Shown: positions 1,892-64,000 of the stretch, piece after piece
Numbering within the stretch: the first letter of the stretch is position 1
Layout: every line of letters starts with the position of its first letter
Source: Candidatus Termititenax aidoneus
GTDB lineage: Bacteria > Margulisbacteria > Termititenacia > Termititenacales > Termititenacaceae
Length of the DNA: 64,000 bases
Reading direction: 5' to 3'
NCBI GenBank assembly: GCA_003864455.1
Contig: BGZN01000005.1
Span: 9,280-73,279, forward strand
Made by a program: the position numbers and the translations under genes
The notes under the pieces: generated by a model
Seen by the model: the letters and a program-made list of their open reading frames with translations, nothing else
What the model was told of the DNA's origin: nothing
The model's database searches: none

Positions 1892-1926
1892 AATTTTAAG
1901 TAACAAATATCTAAGGGGGTATGTAT

Positions 1927-6346: not shown

Positions 6347-6721
6347 ATGACAAAGAGCAATAACGAGGAAGCAAAAGAGACGAAGCCGGAGGTGTGCCCG
6401 ATCTGCGGGAAAGTGCATCCGCAAAGAGAGGACTTGAATATTAAAGCGACACGGGACGAGGTAGAGAGCTTGATACTCATAAACAACCGGGTAAATGTGG
6501 CGGAGCAGGCGGCGCGTCCGACGGCCTTGCAGCAGGGGGTTACGCAGGAGCAGGTGCAGGTGTTCGTGAATGCGGCGCTCAATGCTAAGGCAGAGGCCAT
6601 GAATTTACAGCGGCAATGGTGGAATGAAATATTCGCCAAGTATCCGCAATTACCGAGAGACAAAAATGTGTTTGTGGATTTTGATACTTGTGATTTCTAC
6701 TTGAACTTAACGAGCAGCTAG
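6347..6721 (+). CDS. hypothetical small protein with N-terminal CPICGK zinc-ribbon-like motif
   Basis: A strong RBS (AGGAGG) lies at 6333-6338. The 124-aa ORF sits between the two radical SAM genes. Confidence 0.5.
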   Translation: MTKSNNEEAKETKPEVCPICGKVHPQREDLNIKATRDEVESLILINNRVNVAEQAARPTALQQGVTQEQVQVFVNAALNAKAEAMNLQRQWWNEIFAKYPQLPRDKNVFVDFDTCDFYLNLTSS

Positions 6722-6890
6722 GCTGCGAAGTTAAGTGAAAGTCACAAGCCGCTGAAAGCGGCGAAGTGCTAGTGCAAATAGAGCGATAGCGAAGTTACTT
6801 GTTGCTCTCACTTCACTTCGCTAACGCTTGTGAAGTTCGAGGCGGTCGCAAGGCCGCTGGAAGCGGCGAAGTGTTAGGACAGATAGCGCA
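6722..6890. repeat. REP/MITE-like dispersed repeat copy between the two radical SAM-locus genes
   Basis: The copy reads gcgaagttaagtgaaagtcacaagccgctgaaagcggcgaagtg ... cgaagttacttgttgctctcacttcacttcgc. It has internal inverted symmetry and shares words with the tRNA-flanking repeats. Confidence 0.55.
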
Positions 6891-34677: not shown

Positions 34678-34920
34678 GATTACCTCCTAAAATTTTTTAA
34701 ATACCAAATCCTGCCTCAAGTTTAACACGCTTTATGCCAAGCCTAAAAAATGGTTTAAATAAGCCAAAAATAGTAAAAAATAGAGTTTTGGCATAACAAA
34801 AATGTATGTTTTTTTAGAAAAAAGATACAGAAATGTTGGGCAATCTGGTAAATTTTTGCAATTTTCCGGTCAAACTAGCGATAACTTAATATAAATAAAC
34901 CAGGCAAGGAACAGGTAACT

Positions 34921-36972
34921 ATGTATAGGAAAATTATCATCGAAAAAGAAAATGTGGCTGTCGGCGCGCAATGGCAGCCGGACGCGCCGCTGAAGCGAAG
35001 AGAGTATTGGCCACCCGAAAGTACATTGTATGCCCTGCGCGAGTATGTACAAGCCGGCAATACGAACCTATTATCAAGATACAGCGATAAAGAATTTGAT
35101 ATTGATGGTAAAGAAAAAACAATAATGCACAAAGAATTGTATAAAAAATGTAGTGGATTTTTGGAAAGTTACGAAAATCGTAGCAAGGACTATCAGGAAC
35201 GATACAAAGATGAGTATATAGACATGTTAAATCTCTGGAATACTCTGGAGGGCAACAAAGGAGAAGATTGGCCACCCGAAAAGACATTGTATGCCCTGCG
35301 CGAGTATGTACAAGCCGGTAATACGAACGTGCTATCACAAAATAGAGATAAAGAATTTTCATATACAGATATTGATGGTAAAGAAAAAACAATAGCGCAC
35401 GGAAAATTGCGTAATAAATGTGATAGTTTTTTGAAAAACTACGAAAAATCTAGTAAGGACTATCAGGAACGATACAAAGATATATATGTAGATATGCTGA
35501 ATCTCTGGAATAATCTGAGAGGCAACAAAGGAGAAAGTTGGCCGTCCAAAAGAACATTGTATGTTCTGCGCGAGTATATACAAGCCGGCAATGCGAAAAT
35601 ACCACTACAACACAGCAACAAAAATTTTTCATATACAGATATTGATAGTAAAGAAAAAACAATAACACACGGAAAATTGTATGAAAAATGTACTACTTTT
35701 TTGATAGGCTACAGAAAATACAGTAAGGATTATCAGGAGAAATACAAAAAAGATGAGTATGTATATATAGATATGTTGAATCTCTGGAATACTCTGGAGG
35801 GCAACAAAGGAGAAGATTGGCCACCCGAAAAGACATTGTATGCCCTGCGCGAGTATCTACAGGCCGGCAATACGAACAGGCCATTAAAATCCAGCGACAA
35901 AGAATTTTCATATACGGATATTGATGATAAAGAAAAAACACTAACGCACAAAGAATTGTATGGAAAATGTTATACATTTTTGAGAAACTACAAAAAAAAT
36001 AATAGTAAGGACTATCAGGAACGATACAAAGAGATATATATAGATATGCTGAATCTCTGGAATAGTCTAAAAAGCAAGAAGCGGCTAGAGCAAAATAGTA
36101 ATGCCAGAGCCGCTTACCCCCACGCCAAGAAATCCAAAAATTCTCGTCATCTCGGCTCAGCCAAATACACCGGCCAAAAGCGTGTCCTGTTGTCCCATGA
36201 ACCCCGCCGGATAATTAATTATGCCAATCCGTTATCCGTCGGTACAGCCATATTGAACGGCAGATTTGAAAAAGACCGGACAAATATCGCCAACCCCCGC
36301 GGGCTGGACACGGATACCACGCCAAAGCATGACCTGCAGTACCCATCGGAGCGGAGCTTTACGGATCAAGAGGCGGTAGAGACGACAGTTTATGCCGACA
36401 TCCGTGATCTGCTCCGTTGTGTAGAGAGCAAAACCAATTTCCATAAAACTCCCTCTCGGCGTAAAACTCCGCGTGATCCAGAAATACATAACGCCGTGCC
36501 GAAATTACACAAAATAACTGAAGCGGAGGATTTGATCTTGAAATTGTCTGAAAAAACCGGCAAGGAAGACAGCGATTTACTGCTGGCTGCTTATGAAGTT
36601 TCCGCTGCAGAGCCGTATAATATCGAAAAGGCTAAAGCGCTGATGGACATACTGAAAGATTTGAAAATTAAATACGATGAAGATTTGCGTGTAGCGTACT
36701 GGTTAGTTTTTAATGCCAAATACAAAGATATTTCTAATTGCCTAAATGAATTGCTGGACGCTGCGGACTCAAAATCTGAACGTTATTCTCTGATAAAAGA
36801 GACCGCGCATAGACTTGATGTTTTAAAAATGTGCGATAGGTATCATATTACCAGGGATACGGGTGACTATTTTAGCAGGTCAGTGCGGTTTATTCGGATC
36901 AATCTGTTAAAGCTTTTACCGGAGCTTCAGCAAACTATTGCCAGTGAAGCGGAAAAGCTAATCAATGATTAA
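34921..36972 (+). CDS. tandem-repeat protein, paralog A (4 x roughly 88-aa WPPEKTLYALREYVQAGNTN... repeats plus a unique C-terminal domain)
   Basis: The repeats run from about 35000 to 36080. The N-terminal 25 aa and the 5' leader are conserved with the gene at 38412. Confidence 0.65.
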   Translation: MYRKIIIEKENVAVGAQWQPDAPLKRREYWPPESTLYALREYVQAGNTNLLSRYSDKEFDIDGKEKTIMHKELYKKCSGFLESYENRSKDYQERYKDEYIDMLNLWNTLEGNKGEDWPPEKTLYALREYVQAGNTNVLSQNRDKEFSYTDIDGKEKTIAHGKLRNKCDSFLKNYEKSSKDYQERYKDIYVDMLNLWNNLRGNKGESWPSKRTLYVLREYIQAGNAKIPLQHSNKNFSYTDIDSKEKTITHGKLYEKCTTFLIGYRKYSKDYQEKYKKDEYVYIDMLNLWNTLEGNKGEDWPPEKTLYALREYLQAGNTNRPLKSSDKEFSYTDIDDKEKTLTHKELYGKCYTFLRNYKKNNSKDYQERYKEIYIDMLNLWNSLKSKKRLEQNSNARAAYPHAKKSKNSRHLGSAKYTGQKRVLLSHEPRRIINYANPLSVGTAILNGRFEKDRTNIANPRGLDTDTTPKHDLQYPSERSFTDQEAVETTVYADIRDLLRCVESKTNFHKTPSRRKTPRDPEIHNAVPKLHKITEAEDLILKLSEKTGKEDSDLLLAAYEVSAAEPYNIEKAKALMDILKDLKIKYDEDLRVAYWLVFNAKYKDISNCLNELLDAADSKSERYSLIKETAHRLDVLKMCDRYHITRDTGDYFSRSVRFIRINLLKLLPELQQTIASEAEKLIND

Positions 36973-37020
36973 TTTCACACCCCCCAATCCCTGGGATACC
37001 TAAACTCGCGCTCAGAGGAT

Positions 37021-37296
37021 TTGCTGGAGGATAAAATCGAAATAAAACGTTTGAGCGCTTTGGTAAATGAGGCTCTGACTTTACTGCCCGATCAGAGGAG
37101 AGAGATTGTCGGTTTTTCTTTTGGTCTGGAAGGCCGCCCGAAAATTCCCATGACAGAAATTGCGGAGCATTTGCATATCAACATTGACCAGGCCAATAAG
37201 GAATTAGCCGAGGCTCTAAAAACAGTAGGCGGAATTGTGGAGTTTAATTTAAATTATTCAGAGAACGCTTTGCCAAATCCGGGACAATTCTTTTAA
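37021..37296 (+). CDS. sigma-70 region-4-like HTH fragment (possible gene remnant), TTG start
   Basis: LPDQRREIVGFSFGLEGRPKIPMTEIAEHLHINIDQANKELAEAL resembles sigma region 4. There is no region 2 and no ATG start. It overlaps the convergent CN-hydrolase 3' end. Confidence 0.3.
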   Translation: MLEDKIEIKRLSALVNEALTLLPDQRREIVGFSFGLEGRPKIPMTEIAEHLHINIDQANKELAEALKTVGGIVEFNLNYSENALPNPGQFF

Positions 37297-38067
37297 GACA
37301 ACTTCCGGCCGCTCGTCGCGGACGAAAACCGACTGCTGTCTAGCCTCGCGATTTTCCGGCAGATCGAGGAGCAGTGTTTCGGGTTTTAATTCTGCCGCGC
37401 GGCCGAGCGGCTGTCCGTCATCGGTGTAAACCACGCTGCCGCCCCAAAAAGTCACACCGTCTTCCACGCCAGCGCGATTGCAGTAAAGCACATTCACGGC
37501 CAGATTTTCCGCGATGCCACTCTGGATGTTCTGCCACTGTTTCTCAATGCCGGCGCGGTAAGGCGACGAGGAGATAATCACGACATTTTCCGCGCCGGCG
37601 CTCGCCGCCAGATACGCGCTGGAAAAATGCCAGGCGTCTTCGCAGATCAATATGGCGGTTGGGCCTAAGACTGACGCAAAAGTCTGGAACTGGCTGCCGG
37701 CGCTGAAGTAGCGTTTTTCGTCAAACATGCCGTAAGTCGGCAGATAAACTTTGCGGTGCGTGTGGACAAGCTCTCCGCCGCTCAAGTAAAACGCGGCATT
37801 GTAGGCGCGCGAATTTTGGCTTTCGATCGACCCCAGGATTATATCGATGCCGGCGCTTAATTTTTTGAGTTTGGGCAGATATTCGTCCGCGCCGGGCAGC
37901 AGGTCAAACACTTGATCTTTGAGCAAATAGCCGGTCAGCGCCAGCTCGGGGAAAATTATCAAACGCGCGCCGTTTTGTCGCGCCGCCAGGATTTCTTTTT
38001 CCAGCAAAGCGTAATTGGCGGCCAGATTGCCAAGCGTGGGATAGATCTGCGCCAGCGCGATTTTCAT
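37258..38067 (-). CDS. carbon-nitrogen hydrolase (nitrilase-superfamily amidohydrolase)
   Basis: It begins MKIALAQIYPTLGNL and carries CN-hydrolase motifs (FPELALTGY, ILICEDAWH). Confidence 0.85.
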   Translation of the reverse strand: MKIALAQIYPTLGNLAANYALLEKEILAARQNGARLIIFPELALTGYLLKDQVFDLLPGADEYLPKLKKLSAGIDIILGSIESQNSRAYNAAFYLSGGELVHTHRKVYLPTYGMFDEKRYFSAGSQFQTFASVLGPTAILICEDAWHFSSAYLAASAGAENVVIISSSPYRAGIEKQWQNIQSGIAENLAVNVLYCNRAGVEDGVTFWGGSVVYTDDGQPLGRAAELKPETLLLDLPENREARQQSVFVRDERPEVVLKELSRIWQSVL

Positions 38068-38411
38068 GACGTTAGTTTAGCGCATCGCGCTTTTATTTGC
38101 CATGCGGTGCGCAAAAGAGGCCGGTTTATCCGGCCTCTTCTTCCAGTTTTATCAGGGCAGTAAAACGGAATTGCCAGTTAACAAACAATTTTCTGGCCAG
38201 GTTGAAATGATTTGAAAAATAGGGTAATTTAGCCAAAAATCAGCCGGTTTCTGTGGCAATATATTACAATAATGTAATATATTATATATAATCACGCAAA
38301 AATGTAGTATTTGTTATTTGGACAAAATTTTGTGCAAATAAAAAATCTGCACCATTCCAACCGAACTGACGATAACTTAACATAGATAAACCAAGCAAGG
38401 AGTAAGTAACT

Positions 38412-40439
38412 ATGTATAGAAAAGTTATCGCTAAAAAGGAGAACGCGGCTGTCAGCGCACAGCGACAGCCGGACGCGCCGCTGAAAAGTGTAGCTCTGAA
38501 ATTTATAAATAGCGTGGCAGAACTGTACAGAAAAACAGGCAGGATGCACAGTTCGAATGTGCCGGAAGAGAAAGATCTTTATCAGCAATGGCATACCCGG
38601 TATAAATATGATCCGGAAGTCAGGCGGGAGTTAGAGAAAAGAGGCGTGGATGTAAACAGGACGCTGGAAATTGTGCAGGAGGAAGAAACGCAGGCGGATT
38701 TCATAGACAATATGGAAAAGATATACAAGGAAACAGGCAGGATGCCCAGTTCGAATGTGCCGGGAGAGAAAAATCTTTATTGGCAATGGCATACCCGGTA
38801 TAAATATGATCCGGAAGTCAGGCGGGAGTTAGAGAAAAGAGGCGTGGATGTAAACAGGACGCTGGAAATTGTGCAGGAGGAAAAAGCGCAGGCGAATTTC
38901 ATAGACAATGTGGAAAAGATATACAAGAAAACAGGCAGAATGCCCGATCAGAGAGTGCCGGAAGAAGTGAATATTTATCATCAATGGATTAGGACGTATA
39001 AATATAATCCGGAAGTCAGACAGCAATTAAAAGCGAGAGGTCTTTGTATTCCAGAAATTACCTGGAATGAACAGAAATATGTAAAGTTCATAGATAGTGT
39101 GGCAGAACTGTACAGAAAAACAGGCAGGATGCCCAGTTCGAATGTGCCGGAAGAAGTAAGCCTTTATCAGCAATGGCATAACAAGTATAAATATAATCCA
39201 GAAGTCAGACGGGAGTTAGAGAAAAGAGGCGTGGACGTAAACAGGACGCTGAGAATTGTGCAGGAGGAAGAAACGCAGGCGGATTTCATAGACAATGTGG
39301 AAAAGATATACAAGGAAACAGGCAGAGTATCCAATTATAGCATGCCGGGAGAGAAAAATCTTTATTGGCAATGGTATACCCGGTATAAATATGATCCGGA
39401 AGTCAGGCGGGAGTTAGAGAAAAGAGGCGTGGATGTAAACAGGACGCTGAGAATTGTGCAGGAGGAAGAAACGCAGGCGGATTTCATAGACAATGTGGAA
39501 AAGATATACAAGGAAACAGGCAGAATATCCAATTATAGCATGCCGGGAGAGAAAAATCTTTATTGGCAATGGCATAACAGGTATAAATATGATCCGGAAG
39601 TCAGGCGGGAGTTAGAGAAAAGAGGCGTGGACGTAAACAGGACGCTGAGAATTGTGCAGGAGGAAGAAACGCAGGCGGATTTCATAGACAATATGGAAAA
39701 GATATACAAGGAAACAGGCAGAATGCCCAATTATAGCGTGCCGGGAGAGAAAAATCTTTATTGGCAATGGCATAACAGGTATAAATATGATCCGGAAGTC
39801 AGGCGGGAGTTAGAGAAAAGAGGCGTGGACGTAAACAGGACGCTGAGAATTGTGCAGGAGGAAGAAACGCAGGCGGATTTCATAGACAATATGGAAAAGA
39901 TATACAAGGAAACAGGCAGAATGCCCAATTATAGCGTGCCGGGAGAGAAAAATCTTTATTGGCAATGGCATAACAGGTATAAATATGATCCGGAAGTCAG
40001 GCGGGAGTTAGAGAAAAGAGGCGTGGACGTAAACAGGACGCTGAGAATTGTGCAGGAGGAAGAAACGCAGGCGGATTTCATAGACAATATGGAAAAGATA
40101 TACAAGGAAACAGGCAGAATGCCCAATTATAGCGTGCCGGGAGAGAAAAATCTTTATTGGCAATGGCATAACAGGTATAAATATGATCCGGAAGTCAGGC
40201 GGGAGTTAGAGAAAAGAGGCGTGGACGTAAACAGGACGCTGAGAATTGTGCAGGAGGAAGAAACGCAGGCGGATTTCATAGACAATGTGGAAAAGATATA
40301 CAAGGAAACAGGCAGAATGCCTAATTATAGCATGCCGGGAGAGAAAAATCTTTATCAGCAATGGCATAACAAGTATAAATATGATCTAGAAGTCAGACGG
40401 GAGTTAGAGAAAAGAGGTGTTGCGCTGCTCAAGGCCTGA
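38412..40439 (+). CDS. tandem-repeat protein, paralog B (about 10 x 66-aa YKETGRMP...LYWQWHNRYKYDPEVRRELEKRGVDVNRTL repeats)
   Basis: The repeats from about 39600 are identical at the DNA level with a 198-bp period. The leader and first 25 aa are shared with the gene at 34921. Confidence 0.65.
   Translation: MYRKVIAKKENAAVSAQRQPDAPLKSVALKFINSVAELYRKTGRMHSSNVPEEKDLYQQWHTRYKYDPEVRRELEKRGVDVNRTLEIVQEEETQADFIDNMEKIYKETGRMPSSNVPGEKNLYWQWHTRYKYDPEVRRELEKRGVDVNRTLEIVQEEKAQANFIDNVEKIYKKTGRMPDQRVPEEVNIYHQWIRTYKYNPEVRQQLKARGLCIPEITWNEQKYVKFIDSVAELYRKTGRMPSSNVPEEVSLYQQWHNKYKYNPEVRRELEKRGVDVNRTLRIVQEEETQADFIDNVEKIYKETGRVSNYSMPGEKNLYWQWYTRYKYDPEVRRELEKRGVDVNRTLRIVQEEETQADFIDNVEKIYKETGRISNYSMPGEKNLYWQWHNRYKYDPEVRRELEKRGVDVNRTLRIVQEEETQADFIDNMEKIYKETGRMPNYSVPGEKNLYWQWHNRYKYDPEVRRELEKRGVDVNRTLRIVQEEETQADFIDNMEKIYKETGRMPNYSVPGEKNLYWQWHNRYKYDPEVRRELEKRGVDVNRTLRIVQEEETQADFIDNMEKIYKETGRMPNYSVPGEKNLYWQWHNRYKYDPEVRRELEKRGVDVNRTLRIVQEEETQADFIDNVEKIYKETGRMPNYSMPGEKNLYQQWHNKYKYDLEVRRELEKRGVALLKA
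38560..40420. repeat. near-perfect 198-bp in-frame tandem repeat array
   Basis: The unit ggcgtggacgtaaacaggacgctgagaattgtgcaggaggaagaaacgcaggcggatttcatagacaat... recurs at about 39617, 39815 and 40013 without mismatches. Confidence 0.8.
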
Positions 40440-40580
40440 GTAGAGGTGTTGAAGAGCAACTCTGCGGAACTGGAAAATCTATATACCGGCGAGCGGATTA
40501 ATACCGGCCGTTTGGCCGGAAGCGGAGCGAAAAATCATTGAGCCGAGATTTTCTAATCCGGCGGAGCAAGTACCTATTAT

Positions 40581-41372
40581 TTAACGCAAAACTAATAGCA
40601 CAATAATACCAAGAATAATACGGTAAACTCCGAACGGCACGAAATTATATTTGCGCAGATAACGCAGGAAAAATTGAATGACCAGCATGGCCGTCCAAAA
40701 AGCAAAATAAAACGCCGCGATTAGCATGAACCATTCCGGCGCGGTGAAAGACAGAGCGGTGTCATACAGGGTCAGCGCCGCCGCGCCCAGCATAGTCGGC
40801 ACGGCCAGAAAAAACGAAAATTCCACCGCGGCTGTCCGGCTCAAACCCAGGAGCAAGCCGCCGATAATCGTTACCGCCGAACGCGATGTGCCCGGCACCA
40901 TGGCCAGGCATTGAAAAAAACCAAGCGCCAGAGCGGTCAGCCAGCCGGTGTCGGACATGACAGATGTTTTGGCCGGCCGGTTGCGCAGCGCAAACTCCAG
41001 GACTATCATCAGCGCTCCGTAAAAGATCAAAGCCGCGGCCACGACGCGCGGCTCAAAAAGAGTTTTTATTTCCGCTCTGTACAGAAAACCTAAAACCGCC
41101 GCCGGCAAAAAAGCGACCAGGATTTTGAGCCAGATCGGTAGGACTTTGGTGTAAAATTCCCGGCGAAAAGGCCAGAACATCGTGCCGTACAGTTTGACCA
41201 CGGCCATGATCGCGCCCAGTTGAATAATCACCTCAAACGCGCTGCTGAATTTGGGATTGCCGGAAAGCCCGTGCAAAAGGCGCTCGGCCAAGATCAAATG
41301 CCCCGTACTGCTGATTGGCAGAAATTCGGTGAGACCTTCAATAATGCCGAGAAAAATGGCTTTCCAGAACAT
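40581..41372 (-). CDS. uppP: undecaprenyl-diphosphatase (BacA/UppP)
   Basis: It begins MFWKAIFLGIIEGLTEFLPISSTGHLIL at the internal ATG at 41372. It is multi-TM. Confidence 0.9.
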   Translation of the reverse strand: MFWKAIFLGIIEGLTEFLPISSTGHLILAERLLHGLSGNPKFSSAFEVIIQLGAIMAVVKLYGTMFWPFRREFYTKVLPIWLKILVAFLPAAVLGFLYRAEIKTLFEPRVVAAALIFYGALMIVLEFALRNRPAKTSVMSDTGWLTALALGFFQCLAMVPGTSRSAVTIIGGLLLGLSRTAAVEFSFFLAVPTMLGAAALTLYDTALSFTAPEWFMLIAAFYFAFWTAMLVIQFFLRYLRKYNFVPFGVYRIILGIIVLLVLR

Positions 41373-46859: not shown

Positions 46860-47035
46860 GTGCCAAGCCGACGGCTGGCTCTCGTGCGTAACGTAAATTA
46901 TTTTCGTGTTGTAAACTCGTCACTTCGGCGGCTGCGCCGCCTTGTGGCTCTCACTTAACTTCGCGGCCGCGCCGCTCGTTAAGTTCGAGTGACAATTTGC
47001 GCGTTTCTCAATGCGCGCAAATTGATACCAAGCGC
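46860..47035. repeat. REP/MITE-like dispersed repeat copy between aspartate aminotransferase and tRNA-Lys
   Basis: It shares words with the repeats at 5990-6130, 6722-6890, 25556-25625 and 63365-64000. Examples are ctctcacttaacttcgcg (reverse complement of cgcgaagttaagtgagag) and an agccgacggct hairpin. Confidence 0.55.
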
Positions 47036-47044
47036 ATGGGCGCT

Positions 47045-47120
47045 TGGTGATCCCGGCGCGATTCGAACGCGCGACCGCTACATTAAAAGTGTATCGCTCT
47101 ACCGACTGAGCTACGGGACC
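47045..47120 (-). tRNA. tRNA-Lys (anticodon UUU), CCA encoded
   Basis: The reverse complement folds as a cloverleaf. The acceptor stem is GGTCCCG/CGGGATC, the anticodon loop is CUUUUAA and the T-loop is TTCGAAT. Confidence 0.8.
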
Positions 47121-47930: not shown

Positions 47931-50900
47931 CTAATTCAACACCGCAAATTTAGATTTGATGATGTGTTTTTCGCCGGTGACTTGGTCGGTCAGTGTGAGC
48001 AATACTATATACACGCCGTTGCCGATCTGGTCATTGAAATCATTTTCGCCGCTCCAGATAAATTCCGCCGGAAAATCATTTGTGGCCGGCAGGTCTTTGG
48101 TTGTCTTATATAGCAGCCGGCCGCTGATCGTGTAAATCCGCAGCTCCGCACTGCAATTATTTGGCGCGCGGTAAACAAAATGCAGCGGACCGTCGGTCAG
48201 CTTGACCGGATTGGGCGCGATGATTACATTGTAATTTTCCACTATAGTTGCGTTCCTATTGAGCGCCGAGCCGAGCGTGTACATTCCTGGCTTGTTCGTG
48301 GTAAAACTGACCGCGCCGTTCGCGGCCAGCTGCGCTGCGTTGCCGGTAAACATTTTCCATTTGTATTCCTGCGCGTCAAAATAATAAACAGCCAAATTGT
48401 TGTAAGACGCGGCGTCCGGCGTCAGCGGTATAGTAACTTCGATGCCCTTGTTTGCCGCGCCGCTAAAGTTTAATTCCCAGACGCTGGAAATCCACAGCGT
48501 TTCATTGGCGTTTGGATAATAATTGCTGTATGTAACATCGTTCAGCGTTACGGTTTCATCGTCGTCAAATGTACCAGCCAGCGCCAGGACGCTGACATTG
48601 GGACTATTGCCTTCCTGATAAAAGTCCACAAAATTAAAAGTTACGGCATTGGCAGTGGCAGTGTTCTTGGCTTGGTCTTGCGCGACTATGATAATATCGA
48701 TATTGCCTGATGACCGATCACTGAAATTCAAAGTCAGAGCAAAAGTTGTCTGGCTGTAACTGTCTCTGTCAATCATCTCCAGTTCGCCGTTTACGTAAAC
48801 CAAAATTTCACTCTTAATTTCTTTGTTGCCGGTGATGCGGATCAACGCGCGGCTGGTGTCTGTGTAGCCGAGCGGCGAAATATCCGGTGTAGCCGGCGGG
48901 AAAGTGTCGGGGATAGTCCGAAAAACATAAGCCAGCACGCTGATATTGCCGCTGCTGCCGTTATAATTATTATTGTCGCGCGCTGTAACGGTTACTCTGT
49001 ATTCCGTGTCGTACTCCAGTTCCGGCGGCTGATAATTGAGCTGGTAACTCTTGCCGTCGCTGCTGGGCGTCAGACTGCCGCTCAGGTCAATGAAATACCG
49101 CGTCTCGTTGTTTATCTGCAGAATTGTATATATCGGATTGACGCCGCTCATCGTGTCGATAAGATCGACGATTATTCGAGAATCGATACTGACTGAATAA
49201 TTATTGTTTACCGGTTCGACCGGCTGAATACTCGGCATGGACAAATCGGGCGCGGTCAAGAAATGCTGCGTGCTATTGGCCGTATTCCCGAAAACATCGG
49301 CAATATTTAAAGTGATCTGTAAATTTTTGTTGTAGCCAATATTCGTTAGCAATAATTCCGCGGTCAATTGTTTATTGGCGGTGGTTATAGACAAGACCTG
49401 CATTGTGGCCAGCGGATTATTGATAGAAATACTGATGCTGTCCGGATCGAGGTCTGAATAATTGTCTTCAACAAAAATATTGATTACGGCGTTGTCCGTA
49501 TTTGGATTGCCCTGCGTGATGGTAAAGGTATTAACTGTCGGCGGCCGGAAATCCGTGATGACGACAAAATTATAGGCCAATTCTCGCTGATGTCCCAGAT
49601 TATCCTCAATATTAATCGTTACGGAAACCGTGCTGCCTAGTTCAAAAAAGTCCGGCGGCGTGTAAATAATTTGCGCGTTGTAAATGTCGCTGGCATCTAT
49701 AGTGTAGTCTGCCGCACTGATTACATTGCCGCTGACTTCCAGCGTCAAAGTATTGAGACTGAGACCGGATTCCAAATCCTGGATATTAAAACTGAGCGGC
49801 GTGTCTTGCGGCGTTCTGGTTTGGCCTGGCGCTGGATAGGCCAGGATAGCCGGCGGATCGGTGTCGGCCTTGGTTTGGAAAACAAAAACTTGAGCAGTTA
49901 CCAGTTCGACATTATTGGCGGCGTTGATCGTAATAGTATACGGCTGGTTCAATTCTAAACGGCCGGCGTAAATATAAATGTTGTTCGCGCTGGCCCGCAA
50001 TTCGGCGGTGCGGTCAATATCATTCAAAATAAAATTAAATGTGGCGATCTCGCTTTCATTATCCGTAACCAAGAAAACAATATTTTGCGTAATGGCAACG
50101 CCGGTCAGGGCGAGCGGCTCGATCAGGTTAATAGTCGGAGCGGTTTTGTCATTGATCGTGCGTACCGAGATCGTCACGGTCAGCTCGGCATAATTTCCTG
50201 TAATTACTGCGGACAATTCTTCCTGCGGCGGGTGATTGAAAATTATGCTGCTGGTAGCGCTCGCCGGATTTGCGGAGTTGTCGCCAAAAGAACCGGCGCC
50301 GTCTGTGCTCAGAGTTACCGGCACTTCCTGCAGCGGTGTGCCGTATTTATCCTGCACGGAAATATTGATGGTCGAAGTCTGGCTAAAATTCTTGACGATC
50401 AGAGCCGGCGCTAGATTCAGCACAGCCGGATGCACCAGCTCAAATTTGCCGATATGCAGTGCTTGAGCGCTGAGCGTGTAGCCGCCCTTGAGGTTTGGTG
50501 AGATCACGGCGTTGCCGGTCAAATAAATATTGTCGGTCATATTCCCGTAATAATCGCTCAAAACTTTTCCGTCTGCTGAGATGAATGGATATTTGTCCGG
50601 CGAATACATTTCCAGCCAATAGGTTTTGCCGTTTAAGGACGCGACCGCGGAAGTGTCAAGATAATTCGCGTTGAGGCTCAGGCTGCGAAAATCGGCGCGT
50701 TCATAATCTATTTGATTGCTGGACGGCAAGGTGAGCGCGCCCAGCCATTGACCATCTATTTCGCGGTAAATAGTTACTGTCGAATCCGCGGTAAATTCAT
50801 TCATATCGCCGTTCTCATTTTCAGCGTAGTAACCGGCGTCAATCGGCAGCAAAATGCTCGGCCGGTATTCCAGCGCGCCGATATCGTAAGGCTCACTGCG

Positions 50901-53900
50901 GCTTTTGTTTTTGTAGTCTGTGTCCGAAATCCAGTAAGTATTGCGGCTGTTTTCATTGTCCACGATTTCTTTCGCCGTGGCTTTCGGCACATAGTCATAT
51001 TTGTCTATGGCGCTTAGATTAGCCGAAACACCGGCTGTGTTAATATCAGCCGGATAACAATTATACAGATTGGGCTTGTTGGCGTTTGTATTAACATGCG
51101 CGGTCTTGCCCGCGGCTGTGTTTTCAATGAATAAAGAATTGTAAATATTGGGCTTGATGCTGTTAATATTGTATATAGCGCCGTAATAATTTGCAGCCGT
51201 GTTTCTGATAAATGAGGATTGATAAATATTGTTTGCTTGAGCGGAAGAATAATATATTGCGCCGGCATTATTTGCGGCTTTGTTATAATCAAAAATATTA
51301 TTTATTAGATTTGATTTGCTGTTAATTATATAGATAGCGCCGCCATTTTGAGTGGCGGTATTGCCGCGGAATAAACTTCTTTCTAAGTAAAGATCACCAT
51401 TGCTGACGCAAATACTTCCGCCGTTGTTGGCAGAATTTCCGGAAATCGTTAGATCAGCGCCGTATAAGACGCCTTTGTTATAAATAGCGCCGCCGGCGCC
51501 ATTGCCGGATTTAGCGAGTCGATTGCCTATAAAAATTGTTTTGTTAAGAGTCGTGCTGCCGTTATTGAAAATCGCGCCGCCGCCGCTGTTCGTGCTGTAT
51601 CCGTCAGCGCTATTATTTTGGAAGATCGTTTGATCGACCGTAAGCAGGCTGTTATTGAAAATAGCGCCGCCGCCTTCATTGGCGCTATAGCTGGTGTTAT
51701 TGTCTCGGAGAGTAAGATTATTTAAGACCAGAGCCGCATTATTCAGAATAGCGCCGCCGGAGACAGAACGCCCTTTGACCAGCGTGAGATTTTGCAGAGT
51801 TATGTTATAGCCTTTGCCAAAATTAAAAATGCGGCTTTTTTCCTGCGCATCCAGCGTCGCGCCTTGTTCGGAGACAATGACTATGCCGACTGTGGCGGAG
51901 TTGTTTTCCGGCAAATTGATTTCCGCGGCTAAGTCATAATAGTCGTTGACCAGATTTATAGTGATACTGGACAATTCTTTATGCAAGGCATGGTTTAAAG
52001 CGTTCTGAATATTGCGGAAAGGATAATCGGCAAAACCCAGTTCATGGCCGGTGTAGTCCTTGTCGACATAAATATCCTGCGGCGCTGCTAGCGTGCTCAG
52101 AGTTACGACCAGTTGAGCAATATTGCCGCTGGCGTTTTCCGCGGTGATAATCAGATTGTAAGTCATGGCGGTGTCGAAATAATTGAGGCTTGGCGCGGTT
52201 GTTAAAACATATCCCGTGCTTTGCAGGGTAAACAAAGAATTATCCACAGGCAGATTGAGACTGATCTGCGCCGTGCTGATTTTATCCGGAGTTTCTATAA
52301 TAGATATTTTAAAATCGTTAGTAACCAGCACATTGTTGTAATCAGCGGCGGCTGGCTGTAGCAAAATGATATTTGGCTTATCGGATTCCCAGGCGCCAAT
52401 ATCCGGCTGGTGATGCTCCGGTCTGGCCAGACCGCGCATGTCGCGCGAGACCGTCCAGGCGCTGTCCGAATCGTCCGCCGCGTCCACCGCCGGCGAGTTA
52501 AAAGCGATTTCCGTAAAGGTGTCATCTGTAAAGAGCGGAGCGCTGTCTGCTAAATTGTGGTGCGCGGTAATTGTTCCTGCACCGAACGGACTGTTGTCCA
52601 GAATTGAATTGGCTACAACGGCCGCGCCGTTAGAGCCGTCAAATATTTTTAAATTGTTAACCAGATTGGAATGAATAATTTCTGTTCTCGCGCCATAATC
52701 GTTATACACCGCTTGAGTTATGCCAGCCAGCACAGAATTTTGAAGGCGCGCGTATGCCGCGGGCTGATTGAATATCAAGCGCTCAAGATTGTAGCTGCGC
52801 AGAGCTTCAATATATAACCGGCCTGGATTATTAATTTCGCCGCGATAAACAAAGTTTTTTAAATTAACAGTAACCGGCTGCGCAATATCAATATTTCCGC
52901 TGACAATCGTGTTAGTTGTGCCGATTAAAGAGATATTCGTGTTGTTATTCCAAAGAATATTTTCCGCGTAAGTTTCCCCGAGTAAAAATATTTCACTGTC
53001 ATGTCCGGCGATAGACATAGCCTTGGCGATGGTTTGGAAAGGCAGCTCTGCTGAACCGTCATTGGCGTCATCTCCGTTGAGAGCCGACACATACATTTCT
53101 TTGGGATTGAGCGTGCGGAATTGATAGGCGTGCTTGACGCTGGCCGCGTTTACCACAATGTTGATGCTGGCGCTGAAGCGGAAACTGGGGCTGGGTGTAA
53201 AGGTGAGGTAAAAATCTGTCAAATCCGCGGCGCTAGCGTTTAGGCTGATTGTGATCTGCGCGGTTGGCTGAATGTACTCAACGCCGTTGACCAGCAAAAC
53301 AACAGTTGACGGATCGATATTCTGCCGGTGATCACGTATCCGAAAAGTAACCGGACTATTTACAGAAATATCCTGCGCGCCAGCGGTAGGCTGATATTCA
53401 TTCAGATAAGTTCCGTCATATTCGTAAATGCCTATATCCAACCCGTCGTAAATATAAACGGCGGCATTGGGCGAGCCGCTGTCGATCAGCGGGGAATTAT
53501 AACTGACGCGATAATCGTTGGCGTCTGGATTAATAAAACGCGGAGCGTCTATTTTTAAGTTAGTGCCGCTGTTATTTGTAAATTTATCGCCAGCGGAATA
53601 ATTAATAACAACACTGCTGCCTGAAAAATCCTCTTTGTTGATGTCGCCGTTGGCCCAAAAAACGCTGTTATCTATCGAGCCTTGAACGCGATAAGCTATA
53701 TTGCCGGGATTAGTTGAGTTTGGGCCGGTGTTGTTGTGAAAAACGGAGTGCTTTATATTGATCGGGGTTCGCGCGGGATTTGTTGACGGATAAACGCTAA
53801 AAACGCCGCCGTGAAGCCCTGCGGTGTTATTTTTAAACAAACAATGCTCGGCCAGGATCTCGACACAGTCGAGAAAAACTCCGCCTTCTAGACCACTGTG

Positions 53901-56900
53901 TCCGTTGCTAAAAATAGACCAGTAAGCGGAGACTTTGCTCTCAACAAAAGCGCCACCAGCAAATGTAGCGGTCGCGTTGTTAATTGTTACGTATTCCAGC
54001 ACGGCGTTTACTCTGACCGCCACGCCGCCGAAAGTAGCAGATGTGGAATCGAGCACAGTGTTGCTGATCTGCAGCGGGGACAAGTCATTAGTCGCCTGGG
54101 TGTAAAATAATCCGCCGTCTTTGTTGGCGCTATTGCCGCTGACCAACGTATTCAGCACGGTGATGCGCGCCGCCTTGCTGGTGTTGACCACGGCGCCGTA
54201 GAGCGCGCCGTTTTCTCCCGCGTCATTTACCGCGTGATTGTCCAGGATCAGCAAATTATTCAGTGTGATGCTGTTTAAAATAGTATTTTGCTGATTGATC
54301 ACATTGTTAAAAGAAACAATAGTCAGATCCGCCAATTGAATATCGCCGTTGCCAGTGCTGACGATCATAGCGGTTTGTCTATTGCCCTGGATTTTATTTG
54401 TTTGGAATAAACCTTTGAGAGTAATATTTTTGCTTGGCCAGGACAAAGGCGCGCTGAGCGTGATTTTAGAAGCTATGACGATAATAGTGTCGTTGTTGTC
54501 TGCGGCGTCCAGCGCGTCTTGTAAATTGGCATAATAATCTTTGCCGTCGATATAAGCGACAGAACCACCTGGGTCAAACTCCAGCGCGCCAAGATCGTAG
54601 CCGCCGAGGATCGGCCGGCTGTCGCCGGCATAGTCTGTATTTAGCGCGTAATTAGCCGAAGCTTTATTGAAAGCCGGCGAATCTGTCGAGATTAGACGGT
54701 AAGCGGCGTCCAATTGCGGATCAGCGCTGAGATTATCCGGACCGTCCAGCAGAGTTTGCGCCAAAGTATTGACGCCGTAAAGCGCGCCGCTTCCAGAAGC
54801 CAGCTGCGTACTGTTGTCCCAAATAATGCTGTTCAGGAGCGACAGTGTTTTGTTTGACGAAAAAGAGAAAGCCGTTGCGTTTCCAACTATAGTATTGAAA
54901 TTAAGCGTGGCGCCGCTGAAATTCGACAAACGCAAAGCCGAACTTTTATTGTTGACCAAGAGCGAGTTTTCCACCAACAGATTGGCATTGGCGGCTTCTA
55001 AAGATAAAGCCGAGCCGTTGCCGTTTAACACGCTATTTTCGCTGAAGCTGGACTGTCCAATATAGACTGTTTGCAAGGACGAACTGTTGAGGTAAAGCGC
55101 ACCGCCATTATATTGGGAGGTGTTGTTGTGGAAATGCGAACGTTGAATGTTTACTTTCAAACCGTTGTAATAATACAAAGCTCCTCCCTCGTTGCCTTGA
55201 TTGTTGCTGAATGTGCTGTTTTCGATCTTTAAATACTTTACGCTGGCGTTTATGGCCTGGCCGCTGTTGTCGCTAAAAATGCTATTGACGATATTTACTG
55301 TGCCGCTTTCGTTTTCGATTCTTAACGGATTGCTTAGGCCGTGAAAAATCAGGCTGTCCAGGGTGGCGGTCAGATCGGAGCTGCTCTTGATCTGGATTTT
55401 AAAATTGGTGGTTACGTTGTTGCCTTTTAAAGTCAGATTATTTTTATTAGGCCAGTTCAGCTCGGCTTCTTTTTGGCCGGCCTCGGCCAGCGCGTAATTG
55501 CTGGAGATCTCCAGCGTGTGTCCGTCGGCGAGCGACGGGTCTTCGAAGGCCGCGCGCAGGCTGATGTATTGCTGGCCTAGATCAATATTTTTGACAATGC
55601 GCAGCAGCGGATTTATGGTAACAGTTAGGACATTGGAAGAAATACCTTCCGACCAGGCCTGAATTTCCAAAACAACATTTTCGTTGTTTCCGCTTTTGAG
55701 TTTGGTTTGGGCATAACCGTTGCCGCCGCTGAGCGCTGTAACCGGCTCAAAGCTGGCGCCGCCGCTGTTGGCGGATTTAAAATTAAAACTGATTTCCTGT
55801 CCGGCGACTGTATTTCTGTTGTCGTCCAGCGCCAGGACATTGAGCATTAGATCATAGCCGATCTGCACGCTGGCGGTCGGCGGGTCAAAAACTAAATACT
55901 TAAATGAAGCTCGGCGCGTGTAAAATTCACTCTCCGGCACACTGTATTCGCCGCCGGAAGAATTTTTTACAGCGATGCTAAAATTTACAGTTTGACTGGT
56001 GCCGATATAACCCAGATCAAGCTCGGCCTGAAGCGTGTCATTGATCGTGGCAATGACCAGGTCTTCCCGCTGATACACTTTGGTATTGCCGGTGATGTTT
56101 ATAGTTAAGATGATGTCCGTAATGTCGGTGAGCCCCGTGCTTTGATTGTAAATCACGAAGCTAAGAATTGGGTTGGCTTGATTGCCCTGGCTGCCCGCCG
56201 CCGGCTGAATCCCGTTGATAAACAAACCGTCATATTCATAGCTGCCCAGGTCAAAATATTCATAATATTTTCCGTCGGTCAAAGTAACATTATTTGTGCC
56301 GCGGTCAATGCCCGGATCGGCGCTGGTCAGATGAAAATCACCATTGGCCGCGTCCGCAAAACTCGGCGCGGCGCTGAGACAGTTGATGTTGGCCGCCGAA
56401 TTGTCCGGCGGCAGATTGCTGTGAATTATTGTGGTGTTTTGATTATTCGGCGCGAACATAGGCGCGCTGTTGTCCCAGAGAATAGAGTTGATCGCGGTGA
56501 AAGAAGCTAAATATGCAGAGTCGTTGGCGGCGGCAGAGTAAACACTTGGCTCGCCGCTGCCCAGCGCGGTATTGCCGTAAACTGTGCAGTTTTCCAGCTC
56601 GATCTTGCCGCGGTAAAACAAACCTGTTGACCGCACGCTTTGATTGTAAAAGAAATCGCTGCGCGAGGCGCGCAAATTGCCAGAATTATAAAAAAGGCCG
56701 TAATCTTCAACCTGGTGGCGCGCAAATCTGCTGTTCTTAATTAGAACTGTGCCATAGCCGTCTCCCGCTTCAAACGCGCCAATATTGGCTTGATTGCCGT
56801 AAGCCTGCACATTGTGCAGCTCTAAATTGCTGTTTTCTTTGTAAATTGCGCCGCCGAAACTCAAAGCCCTGTTGCCGCTGATCACTGAGTCGTAAATTTT

Positions 56901-59900
56901 TAAAGTAGAGTTATTATGTAGCCCAATACTTCCGCCGTTTCCGGACTGGCCGTTTAACAAGTGAATACGGTTCAGCGTAACTTGCGCGCCGCTGATAACA
57001 AAATGATTCCCTTGCTTTTGCGCATTCAGCGTTACATTGCCGGAAATGGTTATGTTTTTAGTTATGTTTATGCCTGTCTCGGTGTATTCCCCCGGATCGA
57101 TTTCCAGCGTCTGATCCGGCGCGGCGCGGGACACGGCTTGCTGTATGCTGCCATAATAGCTGTCGCTCTCCAAAATATGAAAAGCGGTTTTTTTAGTTGT
57201 AAAATTTAGGGTCGCGTTTTGCGTGTTGCCGCTTTTGTCCGCGACATTAATGGTTAGATAATGTTCGGCATTAAAACTCACGTCCAGCAGCAGTTTGATC
57301 TGAATGCCGTCGGCGATATAACTGAGGCTGCCGGTGTAATTCACCGGCGTGCCGTTCAGCAGTATCTCCAGCAAATTTAAACTGAGGCCGGAATCAAAAT
57401 CCTGCGCTGTGAAATTCAAAGTCAGCGGCGAGTCCAGATCGCTGTCGCCATTATTTGGCGAGATGATCTGAATTTCTGGTTTGGTGTCGTCTGCCTGAGT
57501 TGTAAAAGAATAAGTTACGCTAAGCTGATTGCCCGCATAATCTTCAGCGTTGATCGTGATGCGCAGGTTCTCTTTATAATTAAAAAAAGGCGCAGGGTTA
57601 GTGTAAACATAATCGTTGGAGTCAGTACGAACGGCGATATACTTGTATTGGTCGTTTATGTACAGAGAGATGTAGCTGAGCGGGCTGTCCTGATCAAAAA
57701 GCTCGAAACTAATATCCGCGGTTATAGACACATTGACACTGCCGGGCTGCGGCGTGAGCGTACTCATATTGAGCGTTGGCGCGGTGCGGTCGGCTAGCTC
57801 CAGCGCCGAAGACCAGGGACTGTACGGCGAATAAACATCTGTGTCCGCGTCCCGCCAGCGCAGCCTAACCGCTATTGTTTGATTGTCAGACACGCTGATC
57901 TCGACATTTTCCGAGGCCGCAGGATAAAGCCGGGTATAAATAATTTCGCCGTTGCCGGAAACGCTCAGCTCCCATTCTTCCAAATAATTATTGATCGTCG
58001 CCGGCCGGTTAATTTTCAGGCGCTGATCGTCCGCGGTGTTTCTGCTGTCTTTATTGGTCCAATTGATGTTGTAGATCAAGCCCGGCGTCGGCGGTATTTC
58101 TGTGGTATAAGAAAAAGTACAAACCGCTGTGTTGCCGCTGTAGTCCGCCACGCTGATGGTTACAAAAATCGCTTCGCCGTAATACAGCGGGTTGGGACTG
58201 GGAATGACTTGGACATAAGCAGTGTTGTCTTGATGGACTATATTTAAACTGTGCTCATTGACGGAAACCCGCAGCGTGTCAAAATTTACTTGGCTCTCAG
58301 TGTCCGCAGCATAAAAAGTTATCTTGCTGTTGATATTGTTGCCGGTAACAATATTATAGATGGTGGGCGGCGTGATGTCCGACAAAGTGCTAAAAGAAAA
58401 ATTATAAGTGGCGCTGTTGCCGGCTGCGTCCAGCGCGGCGACCTGAATATTTACAGTGTTGTCATACTGCAGATTTTGGCCGAGAACCAGCCGGCCTTGG
58501 TAAGTTTTTGAAAAATCGCTTTCAGATTTGTAAAGAGATAAACTCTCCAAATAACTACCCTCGACCGCTTGTTCGTTAATTGTAACCGCCAAGCTGATCT
58601 TATAGTCCGGGATTTCGGAATGATCTGTAAAATAAAGACAAATAGGGGCTGTAATAGGTATATTGGCCGAACTGTTCCCCGGCTCGCTGTAGATGATCGG
58701 CGGCGTGCGGTCGGCCAATTGAATAGAATTTTCCGGCGACCAGGCCATAATATCGCTGCCGGGCAGCAGCCAGTACACATAAGCCGTAACATTTTGATTG
58801 TCGCTGACCGTGATCTCGACATGCTCCGTCAAGATCGAAATGCTGGTTATTTCAGAATAATCAGAGTTGCTGCCCAGGCGGTATTTTATATTCCATTCCG
58901 AAATAGCGTTATTTTGGGTCGGCGGACGATGAACCAGCACTATTTGATTATCCGTAGTGTTGTAATTTTTACTGTTGACCCAGGTCAAAGCTGGCGCTTC
59001 CGGCATGGACAGTTCCGCAGTGGTCAGCCAGCTGCGGGTCAGAACAACGCTGTTGCCGGCTGTGTCGAAGGCGTTTATAGTGGCGGAAATTTTAGTGCCG
59101 ATAGCGCTTGTATTGTCCAGTATAAACAAAATATACTCCAGACCTCCCCCGGCGTTGATAGTTACGACGCCGGTCAGCGACTCGGGCGTACCGTAAGCTG
59201 TTTGGCCGGCATTATTGACGAGACGCTGGGTTTCCGCTTCTATGGTCAGGACGCTGTGATTGTCGGTCAGGCCGGTTTCGTCAGAAAAGCCCAGGCCAAA
59301 ACTTGGCGTTACACCGGCCTGTATTTCCAGGACTTGAGCCGGGTAAACATCCCGCATTTCCGGCGGGGTGCGGTCGCCGATATATAACTCCATGCTTGCC
59401 GACTTTTCCGATTCTATGGTGTCGCTGACCCAGGCGATTTGCAGACTGACGGAGGTATTGTCCGGGAGCTCGGTGAACACATAATGATCTATATTAATGT
59501 CTACAGTGGCAATTGCTTCCATATCGCCGGGTTTATAGATTTTCCAATGGGTGATGCCGATGTCGGGCCGGACAATTTGATCGAGCGAAATAGTGATCTG
59601 CTGATTGTCCGTAGTGTTGCGTTCGGTTTCATTGTCCCAGATCAGCAGCGGCGCGGCAGGCTGCGGCAGTTGCACCCGAAAACTAAAAGCGGCATTGGCG
59701 GTATTGCCGGCGTTGTCCGCAAAATTGAGCGTAACAAAGACCAGATCATTATAATTAAACTGATTGTTGAGTAAGAGATATATATTATTTGGAAAAGGAG
59801 TCATTAGCGTATGAGGAATAGAATTTATATTATCGGTCGATATTTCTACATCATAAGAAGCGGCGTTTATTCCGCTATGATTATCCGTAACGGTAATTGC

Positions 59901-62876: not shown

Positions 62877-63173
62877 CGCTTGAAACTCTCCCTCGTCTAA
62901 ATTCATACCCATTTTCCGGTAAAATATACCTGACGCCCCTGCGTCAGGTACTTCCGCGCGCGCATTGTGAGACGCGCGCGGTCGTACCATAATAGTAGTA
63001 TTTATTTTTGCCGCCCCTGCGATCCGGTCGCTGAGCCTGGGACGGTGAGCTTGTATCCTGCGGATACGCTGGCGAACCGTCGAAGCGTCGGTCGTATCAT
63101 GCTGATTTTTATATCGACATATATGGTAGATATATGTATTGATTTTTTCTGGGGCTTATTTGTAATTAGCCTC

Positions 63174-63290: not shown

Positions 63291-63364
<74 letters not shown>

Positions 63365-63417
63365 CTCGAGCTTAACAAGCGTGCGCAGCACGCGCCGTTA
63401 AGCGAGAGCCACAAGCG

Positions 63418-63690
63418 GCGTAGCCGCGAAGTGACAAGGGCCAGAAAACAACAAGTGATGTAAAGACAGTCACTTGTGAAGTTCGACGCGAACTTAACAA
63501 GCGAGCGCAGCGAGTGAGGTTAAGTGAGAGCCAGCCGTCGGCTCGGTCAGCCGACGACACTTCTGCGGCGACTTGAGGTCGCTCGCAGTCGCAAGGAGGC
63601 GTAGCCGCGAAGTGACAAGGGCCAGAAAACAACAAGTGATGTAAAGACAGTCACTTGCGAAGTTCGACGCGAACTTAACAAGCGAGCATT
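63418..63690. repeat. two copies of a roughly 90-bp element (gcgtagccgcgaagtgacaagggccagaaaacaacaagtgatgtaaagacagtcacttgYgaagttcgacgcgaacttaacaagcgagc) between tRNA-Ile and tRNA-Ala
   Basis: The copies at about 63418-63510 and 63599-63690 are nearly identical. A third partial copy follows tRNA-Ala at about 63930-64000. The unit contains a CAAGTGA-N11-TCACTTG hairpin. Confidence 0.75.
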
Positions 63691-63737
63691 GTCGTGTTGG
63701 TGGCGCTCAATTAACAAAACGAACGCGAAGATTACCT

Positions 63738-63810
63738 GGGGGCGTAGCTCAGTTGGTAGAGCGCCTGCTTTGCAAGCAGGATGTCGTGGGTTCGATTCCT
63801 GTCGCCTCCA
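63738..63810 (+). tRNA. tRNA-Ala (anticodon UGC) with G3:U70, CCA not encoded
   Basis: The acceptor stem GGGGGCG/CGCCTCC includes a G:U at position 3:70. The anticodon loop is CTTTGCA and the T-loop is GGTTCGATTCC. Confidence 0.85.
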
Positions 63811-64000
63811 CTCGAGCTTCACAAGCGAGCATGTGCGAGCGACGTGAAGCGAGAGCCACAAGGCCGCGTAGCGGCCGAAGTGACAAGTTTGCGACACGAA
63901 AGCCACTTGCGTTAACGACGAGAGCCACAAGCACGCGAAGCGTGCGAAGTGACAAGGGACAGAAAACAACAAGTGATATAAAGACAGTCACTTGCAAAGC

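Follow-up and report, generated by a model that had tools for sequence, protein, structure and literature searches.

Why should two neighboring genes of one genome begin alike and then encode unrelated proteins? This question is raised by a 64-kb window (the whole stretch of 64,000 nucleotides analyzed here) from Candidatus Termititenax aidoneus, an uncultured termite-gut symbiont of the Margulisbacteria that lives as an ectosymbiont of spirochaetes. Gene A (NO1_0501) occupies the open reading frame (ORF) 34921–36972 and encodes 683 amino acids; gene B (NO1_0504) occupies 38412–40439 and encodes 675 amino acids. The ORFs between 32.5 and 43 kb are GS, gene A, a sigma-like fragment, a CN hydrolase, gene B, UppP, and Rnf. 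We consider it probable that A and B are members of a small modular family with a common module of promoter, 5′-untranslated region (UTR), and leader, and that their repeat arrays were exchanged between paralogs in the course of evolution and not by a programmed switch. The window was the T. aidoneus DNA covered by our searches.

The common 5′ block and the arrays behind it

Genes A and B share a block of 145 nucleotides (34850–34994 and 38341–38485; 77% identity without gaps), found with a repeat finder and by direct alignment, which spans position −71 to codon 25 and is densest from about −47 to +75. The leaders (residues 1–25) are identical at 19 of 25 positions (76%; tblastn E 2e-9), and their coding parts are 79% identical, i.e. 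differ at 21% of positions. Past codon 25 the similarity breaks off sharply, and none is detectable further on. These results bear out an earlier note on this DNA, which had described a common leader and first 25 codons in front of unrelated bodies. A tblastn search of the rest of the window gave no further copy of leader, repeats, or C-terminal domain.

All parts of both genes lie on the forward strand. The predicted promoter of gene A (34857–34883), TGCAAT-N16-CGATA, matches the family motif described below exactly and has −35 and −10 elements of the extracytoplasmic function (ECF) sigma type; homology of gene A to all related loci begins at 34846–34856. It is followed by a 5′-UTR of 37 nucleotides (34884–34920), which contains an AAGGA ribosome-binding site (34906–34910) and is kept in a six-way leader alignment, and by the leader MYRKIIIEKENVAVGAQWQPDAPLK (codons 1–25, 34921–34995). 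In gene B, the promoter TGCACC-N16-CGATA (38348–38374) departs at one position from the AAC that is conserved in the −35 element, the aligned 5′-UTR (38375–38411) carries AAGGA at 38397–38401, and the leader MYRKVIAKKENAAVSAQRQPDAPLK (codons 1–25, 38412–38486) has a putative left recombination junction at its 3′ end. The leader is disordered in the AlphaFold 2 (AF2) models of both proteins, which were built from shallow multiple sequence alignments (mean predicted local distance difference test (pLDDT) 67 and 74); for the leader of A, the pLDDT is below 50 and no stable fold is predicted. An invariant 20-mer codes for QPDAPLK in four leader copies. Scanning for the leader 20-mer yielded two true loci among 19 matches in a genome collection and chance matches alone in a metagenome collection.

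The block that holds the promoter and leader of B (38329–38485, 157 nucleotides) is 82% identical to its counterpart in L013, a syntenic locus in a relative, compared with 87% for the flanks of the B locus, so the leader is ordinary orthologous sequence that is not unusually conserved. Rfam, searched at E up to 1 for a conserved RNA element in the leader, gave nothing in 34–41 kb. A conserved RNA structure of the leader was likewise rejected as unsupported: the 12-pair hairpin obtained with RNAalifold from six leaders (−10.75 kcal/mol) has an unfavorable covariation term, and its GGCTG/CAGCC stem is disrupted in L013. The A promoter may be specifically orthologous to that of the metagenome locus L045 (both with TAAATTTTTGCAA and without GCGCAAATAAAAAA), but overall identity is 59% to L045 and 70% to L013 and shows no preference for L045.

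Two further elements lie upstream of B. At the promoters of the CN-hydrolase/uppP locus, the −35 element is overlapped by an inverted repeat, GCAAAT-N5-ATTTGC (in the window GTGCAAAT-N5-ATCTGCAC, 38331–38353); it is present in L013 (about 3398–3420), L017, and L020 and absent from gene A and L045, and it might act as an operator or as a terminator for the gene upstream. A terminator-like GC-rich hairpin, GAGGCCGG-TTTAT-CCGGCCTC (about 38119–38139), is together with the next ∼50 nucleotides (38112–38190; 535–598 in L017) 90% conserved with Termititenax persephonae, above the surrounding intergenic DNA; its sroD-like Rfam matches are weak and far under threshold.

The A-type array (35008–36081) comprises four units of 84–90 amino acids, as delimited by Tandem Repeats Finder (TRF; period 270, 3.9 copies, 79% matches), unit boundaries, and AF2, and shares 71–81% nucleotide identity with the homologous arrays in L017, L013, and L020. 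The B-type array (38502–40421) comprises ten three-helix units of 66 amino acids (TRF: period 198, 9.6 copies, 88% matches) and is 67–73% identical in nucleotides to the array of L045; its units 7–9 are nucleotide-identical, forming a perfect tandem of 594 nucleotides. Both counts agree with the four and about ten repeats noted before. Profiles of the A and B units are unrelated (hhalign probability 0.3%), and the folds predicted by AF2 differ: the A unit consists of a helix, a β-hairpin, and three helices, the B unit of three helices. The number of A units varies among orthologues (1, 3, 4, and 6–7), and the family holds at least eight array types, which are related at ≥96% probability only in the pairs A/G, D/H13, and K19/K24. 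G+C content is 40% in gene A and 44% in gene B, 51–53% in the leaders, 49% in the window, and 52–55% in the neighboring housekeeping genes.

A helicase-associated (HA) flavor had been ascribed to the B repeats. Whereas hmmscan at E up to 0.1 found no match to Pfam HA (PF03457) in B, the B unit aligns with an HA-like profile of the family (hhalign probability 72%, E 3e-5, 52 columns), of which two member proteins, P0013 (33.4 bits) and P0025 (59.5 bits), exceed the Pfam gathering score. An HA-like nature of the B repeats is plausible from these alignments. Foldseek returned no match of the B unit model in the PDB, and Pfam, NCBIfam, PADLOC, and PHROGs, run on A, B, and their relatives, gave summed sub-threshold repeat noise for B with 0 stretches passing and no match for A. 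The HA domain is reported to be DNA-binding (Mills 2013, as cited in PMC12191111), and the arrays may bind nucleic acid.

A modular gene family and its predicted promoter

Gene A belongs to a family defined by its C-terminal domain (profile E 1.8e-128), and gene B is linked to it by relics of that domain only (73% identity over 37 amino acids); family promoter, leader, and array are all present in both genes, with the one −35 mismatch in B. An exhaustive search of 1.84 billion (1.84e9) proteins with a profile hidden Markov model of the C-terminal domain returned 26 representatives, about 24 of them real, and among 5.8 billion proteins, sequence searches with A and B matched 7 and 2, respectively. 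Wherever a source names an organism for a family member, it belongs to the Margulisbacteria, and the family is specific to termite-gut Margulisbacteria (Termititenax and relatives); scanning IMG/VR with the C-terminal profile revealed no viral relative. A different contig of T. aidoneus encodes a further member, NO1_0447, which brings this species to at least three.

The members follow one layout of short leader, tandem array, and a helical C-terminal domain of ∼280 amino acids, which comes in two homologous, diverged subtypes, C1 and C2 (29–30% identity). Leaders are 12–25 codons long and fall into several classes, and a loose M-Y-x-K-x-I-x-x-K motif is common to the N termini of the family. 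Leader L1, MYR[KN]xIxxKExxxxxAQxQP[DN]APLK, precedes an A array and C1 in gene A, an A array and C2 in L017, P0002, and P0007, a B array and C1 in L045, and a B array with relic C2 in gene B. The leader is thus not confined to the two genes of the window; copies occur in other genomes, with A- or B-type arrays and with either C-terminal subtype. Homologues of the B-type array are joined to C1 elsewhere (L045/P0003 and P0009), and C-type arrays are joined to C1 in P0004 and P0015 and to C2 in P0016. The leaders L2 (MQxAVKEKIKPIRN), L3 (MFIFRNxKAQKE), and L4 (MLIxGAExEKVDF) are each common to genes with different arrays.

Family genes are often clustered, with three in tandem in L022 (7453–13490). 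Two of them flank a HigB/HTH toxin–antitoxin pair in L021 (15099–20778), a BrnT/BrnA pair lies near the L020 locus, and the family tends toward variable regions between housekeeping genes. L045, on a JGI metagenome contig, is the sole full gene with L1, B array, and C1 that was found; the in-frame TAG within its array (619–621) could reflect a pseudogene, strain variation, or a sequencing error.

Wherever the DNA upstream of a family gene could be read, it contains the motif TG[C/A]AA[C/T]-N16-CGATA or a close variant of it. Exact matches number 13 in 127.8 kb of Margulisbacteria DNA, compared with 0.25 expected and a maximum of 3 over 300 shuffles, and each of the 13 precedes either a family gene or the sigma-like gene. 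Two matches with one mismatch, at 9577 and 28172, were set aside as chance, one being intragenic and the other an ordinary sigma-70-like TACAAT promoter. Hallmarks of ECF promoters are an AAC in the −35 element, a T-tract, a CG(T/A) −10 element, and a spacer of 14–17 bp (PMC5758882). The family promoter fits this architecture, with AAC in the −35 element, a T-tract after it, a 16-bp spacer, and a CG(A/T) −10 element. That T never occupies the final position of the −10 element speaks against a promoter of the housekeeping sigma-70 type. The distance from CGATA to the ATG is 37–42 nucleotides in L1 and L2 genes, which have an AAGGA ribosome-binding site, and just 7–10 nucleotides in four genes, for which near-leaderless mRNAs are predicted whose first codons could matter for initiation.

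The same promoter ties in the sigma region-4-like fragment between A and B (37013–37296, forward strand; ORF 37021–37296). The ORF is real, as the earlier note had it, but is not an orphan: by homology to L013 it is the 5′-truncated, promoterless remnant of a larger gene, with 75% amino acid identity to residues 116–212 of the L013 protein (87% in nucleotides). Homology starts at about 36991–37013, and the remnant corresponds to the 3′ 40–50% of a gene of 178–213 amino acids that is complete in relatives; its L013 and L020 copies have the family promoter 39 nucleotides upstream of the ATG. The C-terminal half of the protein gives consistent but sub-threshold matches to region 4 (TIGR02937 E 4e-4, Pfam r4_2 E 0.045, RpoS E 0.35), and profile searches found no match to region 2 of sigma-70. 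We infer that the family genes may form one regulon under an alternative sigma factor or activator, and the adjacent sigma-like gene may be that cognate regulator. The earlier note had missed this family-wide ECF-type promoter, the family of C-terminal domains (of which B appears to have lost its own), and the connection of the sigma-like fragment through the same promoter.

Probable chimeric histories of A and B and competing explanations

At the syntenic site of gene B, between the CN hydrolase and uppP, three relatives (L013, L020, and the T. persephonae locus L017) carry a gene with L1, an A array, and C2. The L013-type homology ends at 38485, and from 38397 onward gene B is colinear with the leader and B array of L045. 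Behind the B array lie relics of a C2 domain (40422–40581, forward strand; 40422–40526 and 40510–40581), detected by tblastn and by nucleotide matches to L013, L020, and L017; compared with the C2 domain of P0007 by tblastn, they show 73% identity over 37 and 58% over 24 amino acids. The frame after the array reads ALLKA*VEVLKSNSAELENLYTGERINTGRLAGSGA, matching C2 ALIKAWVAVLKSSSAELEKLLIYTGGRINTNRLAG, and the stop codon of B, TGA at 40437–40439, stands in place of the TGG of a conserved tryptophan. Downstream of this stop, a deletion of 270 nucleotides is followed by the second C2 relic, up to uppP.

The three syntenic relatives with A array and C2, together with the C2 relics after the B array, indicate that gene B is chimeric, its resident interior having given way to a B-type array. 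In our reconstruction, the resident gene of the CN-hydrolase/uppP locus would have consisted of L1, an A array, and C2, and the part from codon 26 to the middle of C2 would have been replaced by the B-type array of an L045-like paralog. Judging from the relics, gene B lost its C-terminal domain after this replacement, presumably via the TGG-to-TGA mutation and deletions, and it may be decaying.

Homology of gene A to the A/C2-type genes begins at the −35 element (34855), covers the array and the linker that they have in common, RLEQNSNARAAYPHAKKSK (36082–36138), and reaches 36136, where the homology to L017 ends; a recombination junction is placed at about 36136–36139. The adjoining C1 domain with the stop codon (36139–36972; a conserved motif region and, behind it, a helical bundle), delimited by alignments, L045 homology, and AF2, is closest to L045 (65–67% identity in amino acids, 72% in nucleotides), and residues 482–683 are modeled with a pLDDT of 80–90. 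Homology to L045 extends 41 nucleotides beyond the stop codon of A, over a 3′ flank (36973–37013) that probably came along with the C1-type gene. Past ...CTCGCGCTCA, the window enters the middle of the sigma-like gene and L045 diverges. L1, array, and linker would thus have been joined, at the start of the C-terminal domain, to C1 and the 3′ flank of an L045-like gene, and the junction of the resulting segment with the sigma-like gene would have removed the 5′ half of the latter. The sequences are consistent with two parents, one of the A/C2 type and one of the B/C1 type, that exchanged their arrays and whose pieces are now divided between A and B.

A family gene would accordingly be built of an ECF-sigma-type promoter, a short or absent 5′-UTR, a leader, and an array with the C-terminal domain. 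The block common to A and B (promoter, 5′-UTR, and L1) would act as a common expression module and, being homologous between paralogs, would also serve as a crossover point. Crossovers in the common leader and close to where the C-terminal domain begins, with later deletions, would give rise to the present genes, and the leader peptide may also act at the protein level. An exchange of arrays during evolution appears well supported by these junctions and relics.

The earlier note had pictured a leader module fused to swappable bodies and had suggested phase or antigenic variation, in which the leader would be an expression site for copied or inverted silent cassettes. The sharply bounded leader, with the left junction of B exactly at its end, would suit such a system, as would different array types behind the same leader in different genomes and the identical B units, which indicate ongoing array instability. 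However, A, B, and all 13 of the other family genes inspected have their own promoter, tblastn with the units, C1, and C2 found no promoterless A-, B-, or other-type cassette in the window outside 34.8–40.6 kb, and 33–42 kb contains neither a recombinase or invertase gene nor flanking inverted repeats. In addition, the right-hand junctions are non-homologous and carry decayed relics, which points to one-off events, and the differences seen are fixed between species rather than variable in one population. We therefore regard programmed variation as very unlikely. What stands of the swappable module is the exchange itself, as seen in the syntenic A and C2 relatives and the C2 relics, but not an expression site with silent cassettes. 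Still harder to credit is an assembly artefact, by which paralogous reads would have been mis-joined in a single-cell or metagenome assembly: leaders that differ at 21% of their coding positions would not be merged, the junctions are backed by decayed relics and microhomology, and the flanks are colinear with three independent assemblies, even though the source is uncultured, the reads are short, and B contains the 594-nucleotide perfect tandem.

A simple old duplication, in which the copies of one ancestor kept their ends while the arrays diverged in place with no exchange between paralogs, would have to explain why the A and B units differ in predicted fold and lack profile similarity, why homologues of the B array with C1 exist elsewhere while A repeats occupy the syntenic gene of three relatives, and why a single type of array is found in front of either C-terminal subtype (P0015 versus P0016). 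The C2 relics after B and the junction of A linker and C1 likewise show chimerism. In its favor, tandem arrays evolve fast by concerted evolution, the coding conservation of the leader (79%) is not above that of the flanking orthologous genes (87%), and the loose N-terminal motif suggests common ancestry; on balance we judge it unlikely. A tentative possibility, compatible with a history of recombination, is that the leader has been kept mainly as a targeting or secretion signal of exported effectors or as a determinant of translation initiation. Structure prediction gives disorder or a short helix for it, each leader class is common to proteins with different bodies, the 20-mer for QPDAPLK is invariant in four copies, and four genes are near-leaderless (CGATA 7–10 nucleotides from the ATG). 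Yet the leader lacks a hydrophobic or Tat-like signal and matches no known signal family, no secretion system was linked to the loci, the RNAalifold hairpin is weak with unfavorable covariation, and conservation runs through UTR and promoter, which means that it is partly not at the protein level. A more far-reaching scenario, which we consider rather improbable, combines a dedicated alternative-sigma regulon with nucleic acid-binding arrays that gain combinatorial diversity by being shuffled whole at the leader and C-terminal junctions, a natural form of domain-cassette shuffling; the proteins could be effector-like and serve attachment to or exploitation of spirochaetes, with the leader as their targeting signal.

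Several points weigh against our preferred explanation of a family with a common expression module and arrays exchanged between paralogs. Donor genes have been found in other species alone, one of them (L045) with an in-frame stop, and the order and mechanism of the exchanges are therefore reconstructions. Further L1 copies or promoterless cassettes are possible outside the searched 64 kb, and the copy number of B may be mis-assembled, given the perfect identity of its 594-nucleotide tandem. The promoter is deduced from conservation and resemblance alone, and the sigma-like protein, with a sub-threshold region 4 and no recognizable region 2, may not be a sigma factor; its gene is truncated in the T. 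aidoneus window. Moreover, the A unit has no Pfam model and no structural or sequence homologue pointing to a function, and the C-terminal domain has no match in Pfam, NCBIfam, PADLOC, PHROGs, or the PDB (by sequence and profile searches) and no functional homologue.

Wider context and known systems

The protein family described here has until now been annotated as "hypothetical" throughout and is restricted to an uncultured symbiont lineage, which gains a recognizable alternative-sigma-type promoter and a candidate regulon. Genes A and B would illustrate how paralogs can trade entire tandem arrays in nature where conserved modules meet, and the breakpoints and relics can still be seen. For annotation, NO1_0504 would be a truncated chimera, and the sigma-like ORF of 91 amino acids would be a gene remnant and not an orphan gene.

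Elsewhere in the window, a forward-strand ORF of 669 amino acids (1921–3930) consists mostly of an eight-residue cysteine repeat, C-G-x-x-C-x-x-x, with more than 100 cysteines and no Pfam match; it contains tandem units of 96 nucleotides at 2520–3779 and is preceded by a sigma-70-like promoter, TTGACA...TATAAT (about 1838–1870). A reverse-strand ORF of 5019 amino acids (47931–62990) has internal repeats of ∼585–600 nucleotides at 58.9–61.4 kb. With a Pfam match to Right-handed beta-helix just above threshold and a sub-threshold match to Ig-like (Big_1), it looks like a surface adhesin, which would be plausible for an ectosymbiont. tRNA genes lie at 47048–47120 (reverse strand), 63291–63364, and 63738–63810 (both forward strand). 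Around them, dispersed hairpin repeats such as GAGAGCCACAAG-hairpin-GAAGTGACAAGG occur as direct and inverted units of 56–90 nucleotides at 46.9 kb (46876–47120), 63.4–64.0 kb (63291–64000), and 6.7 kb (6699–6768).

The family promoter resembles those of the ECF sigma regulons of Bacillus subtilis (sigW, sigX, sigM, and sigV) in its TG[C/A]AAC, T-rich stretch, 16-bp spacer, and CG(A/T)-type −10 element (PMC5758882), and it precedes the sigma-like gene, as in autoregulated ECF sigma genes. The candidate factor differs in its weak region 4 and the absence of a recognizable region 2, the sequence of the putative −10 element is CGATA, and an anti-sigma gene was not identified. HA proteins (PF03457) are approached by P0025 and P0013, which score above the gathering threshold, and by the three-helix, 66-residue B unit through its alignment with the HA-like profile of the family. 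In contrast to HA proteins, B stays under Pfam significance, and the arrays are joined to a novel C-terminal domain and to no helicase; the A unit, with its β-hairpin, has a different fold.

Among switching systems, site-specific inversion of the shufflon type finds no counterpart here: no inverted repeat pairs flank A and B, and no recombinase is among the ORFs of 32.5–43 kb. Antigenic variation from silent cassettes operates in pilE/pilS of Neisseria, vlsE of Borrelia, and msp2 of Anaplasma. A conserved 5′ segment joined to variable bodies is found in those systems as well as in A and B, where, however, each copy has its own promoter, the 64-kb window holds no silent cassettes, and the junctions are irregular and decayed. 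Recombining tandem-repeat families are also known from other host-associated bacteria, such as the TAL effectors and the repeat proteins of Ehrlichia and Anaplasma. Although whole arrays of unrelated units appear to have been exchanged here, and neither similarity to those families in sequence or structure nor evidence of secretion or host targeting was found, the genes described here resemble them in their near-identical units, variable copy number, conserved termini, and paralog chimeras.

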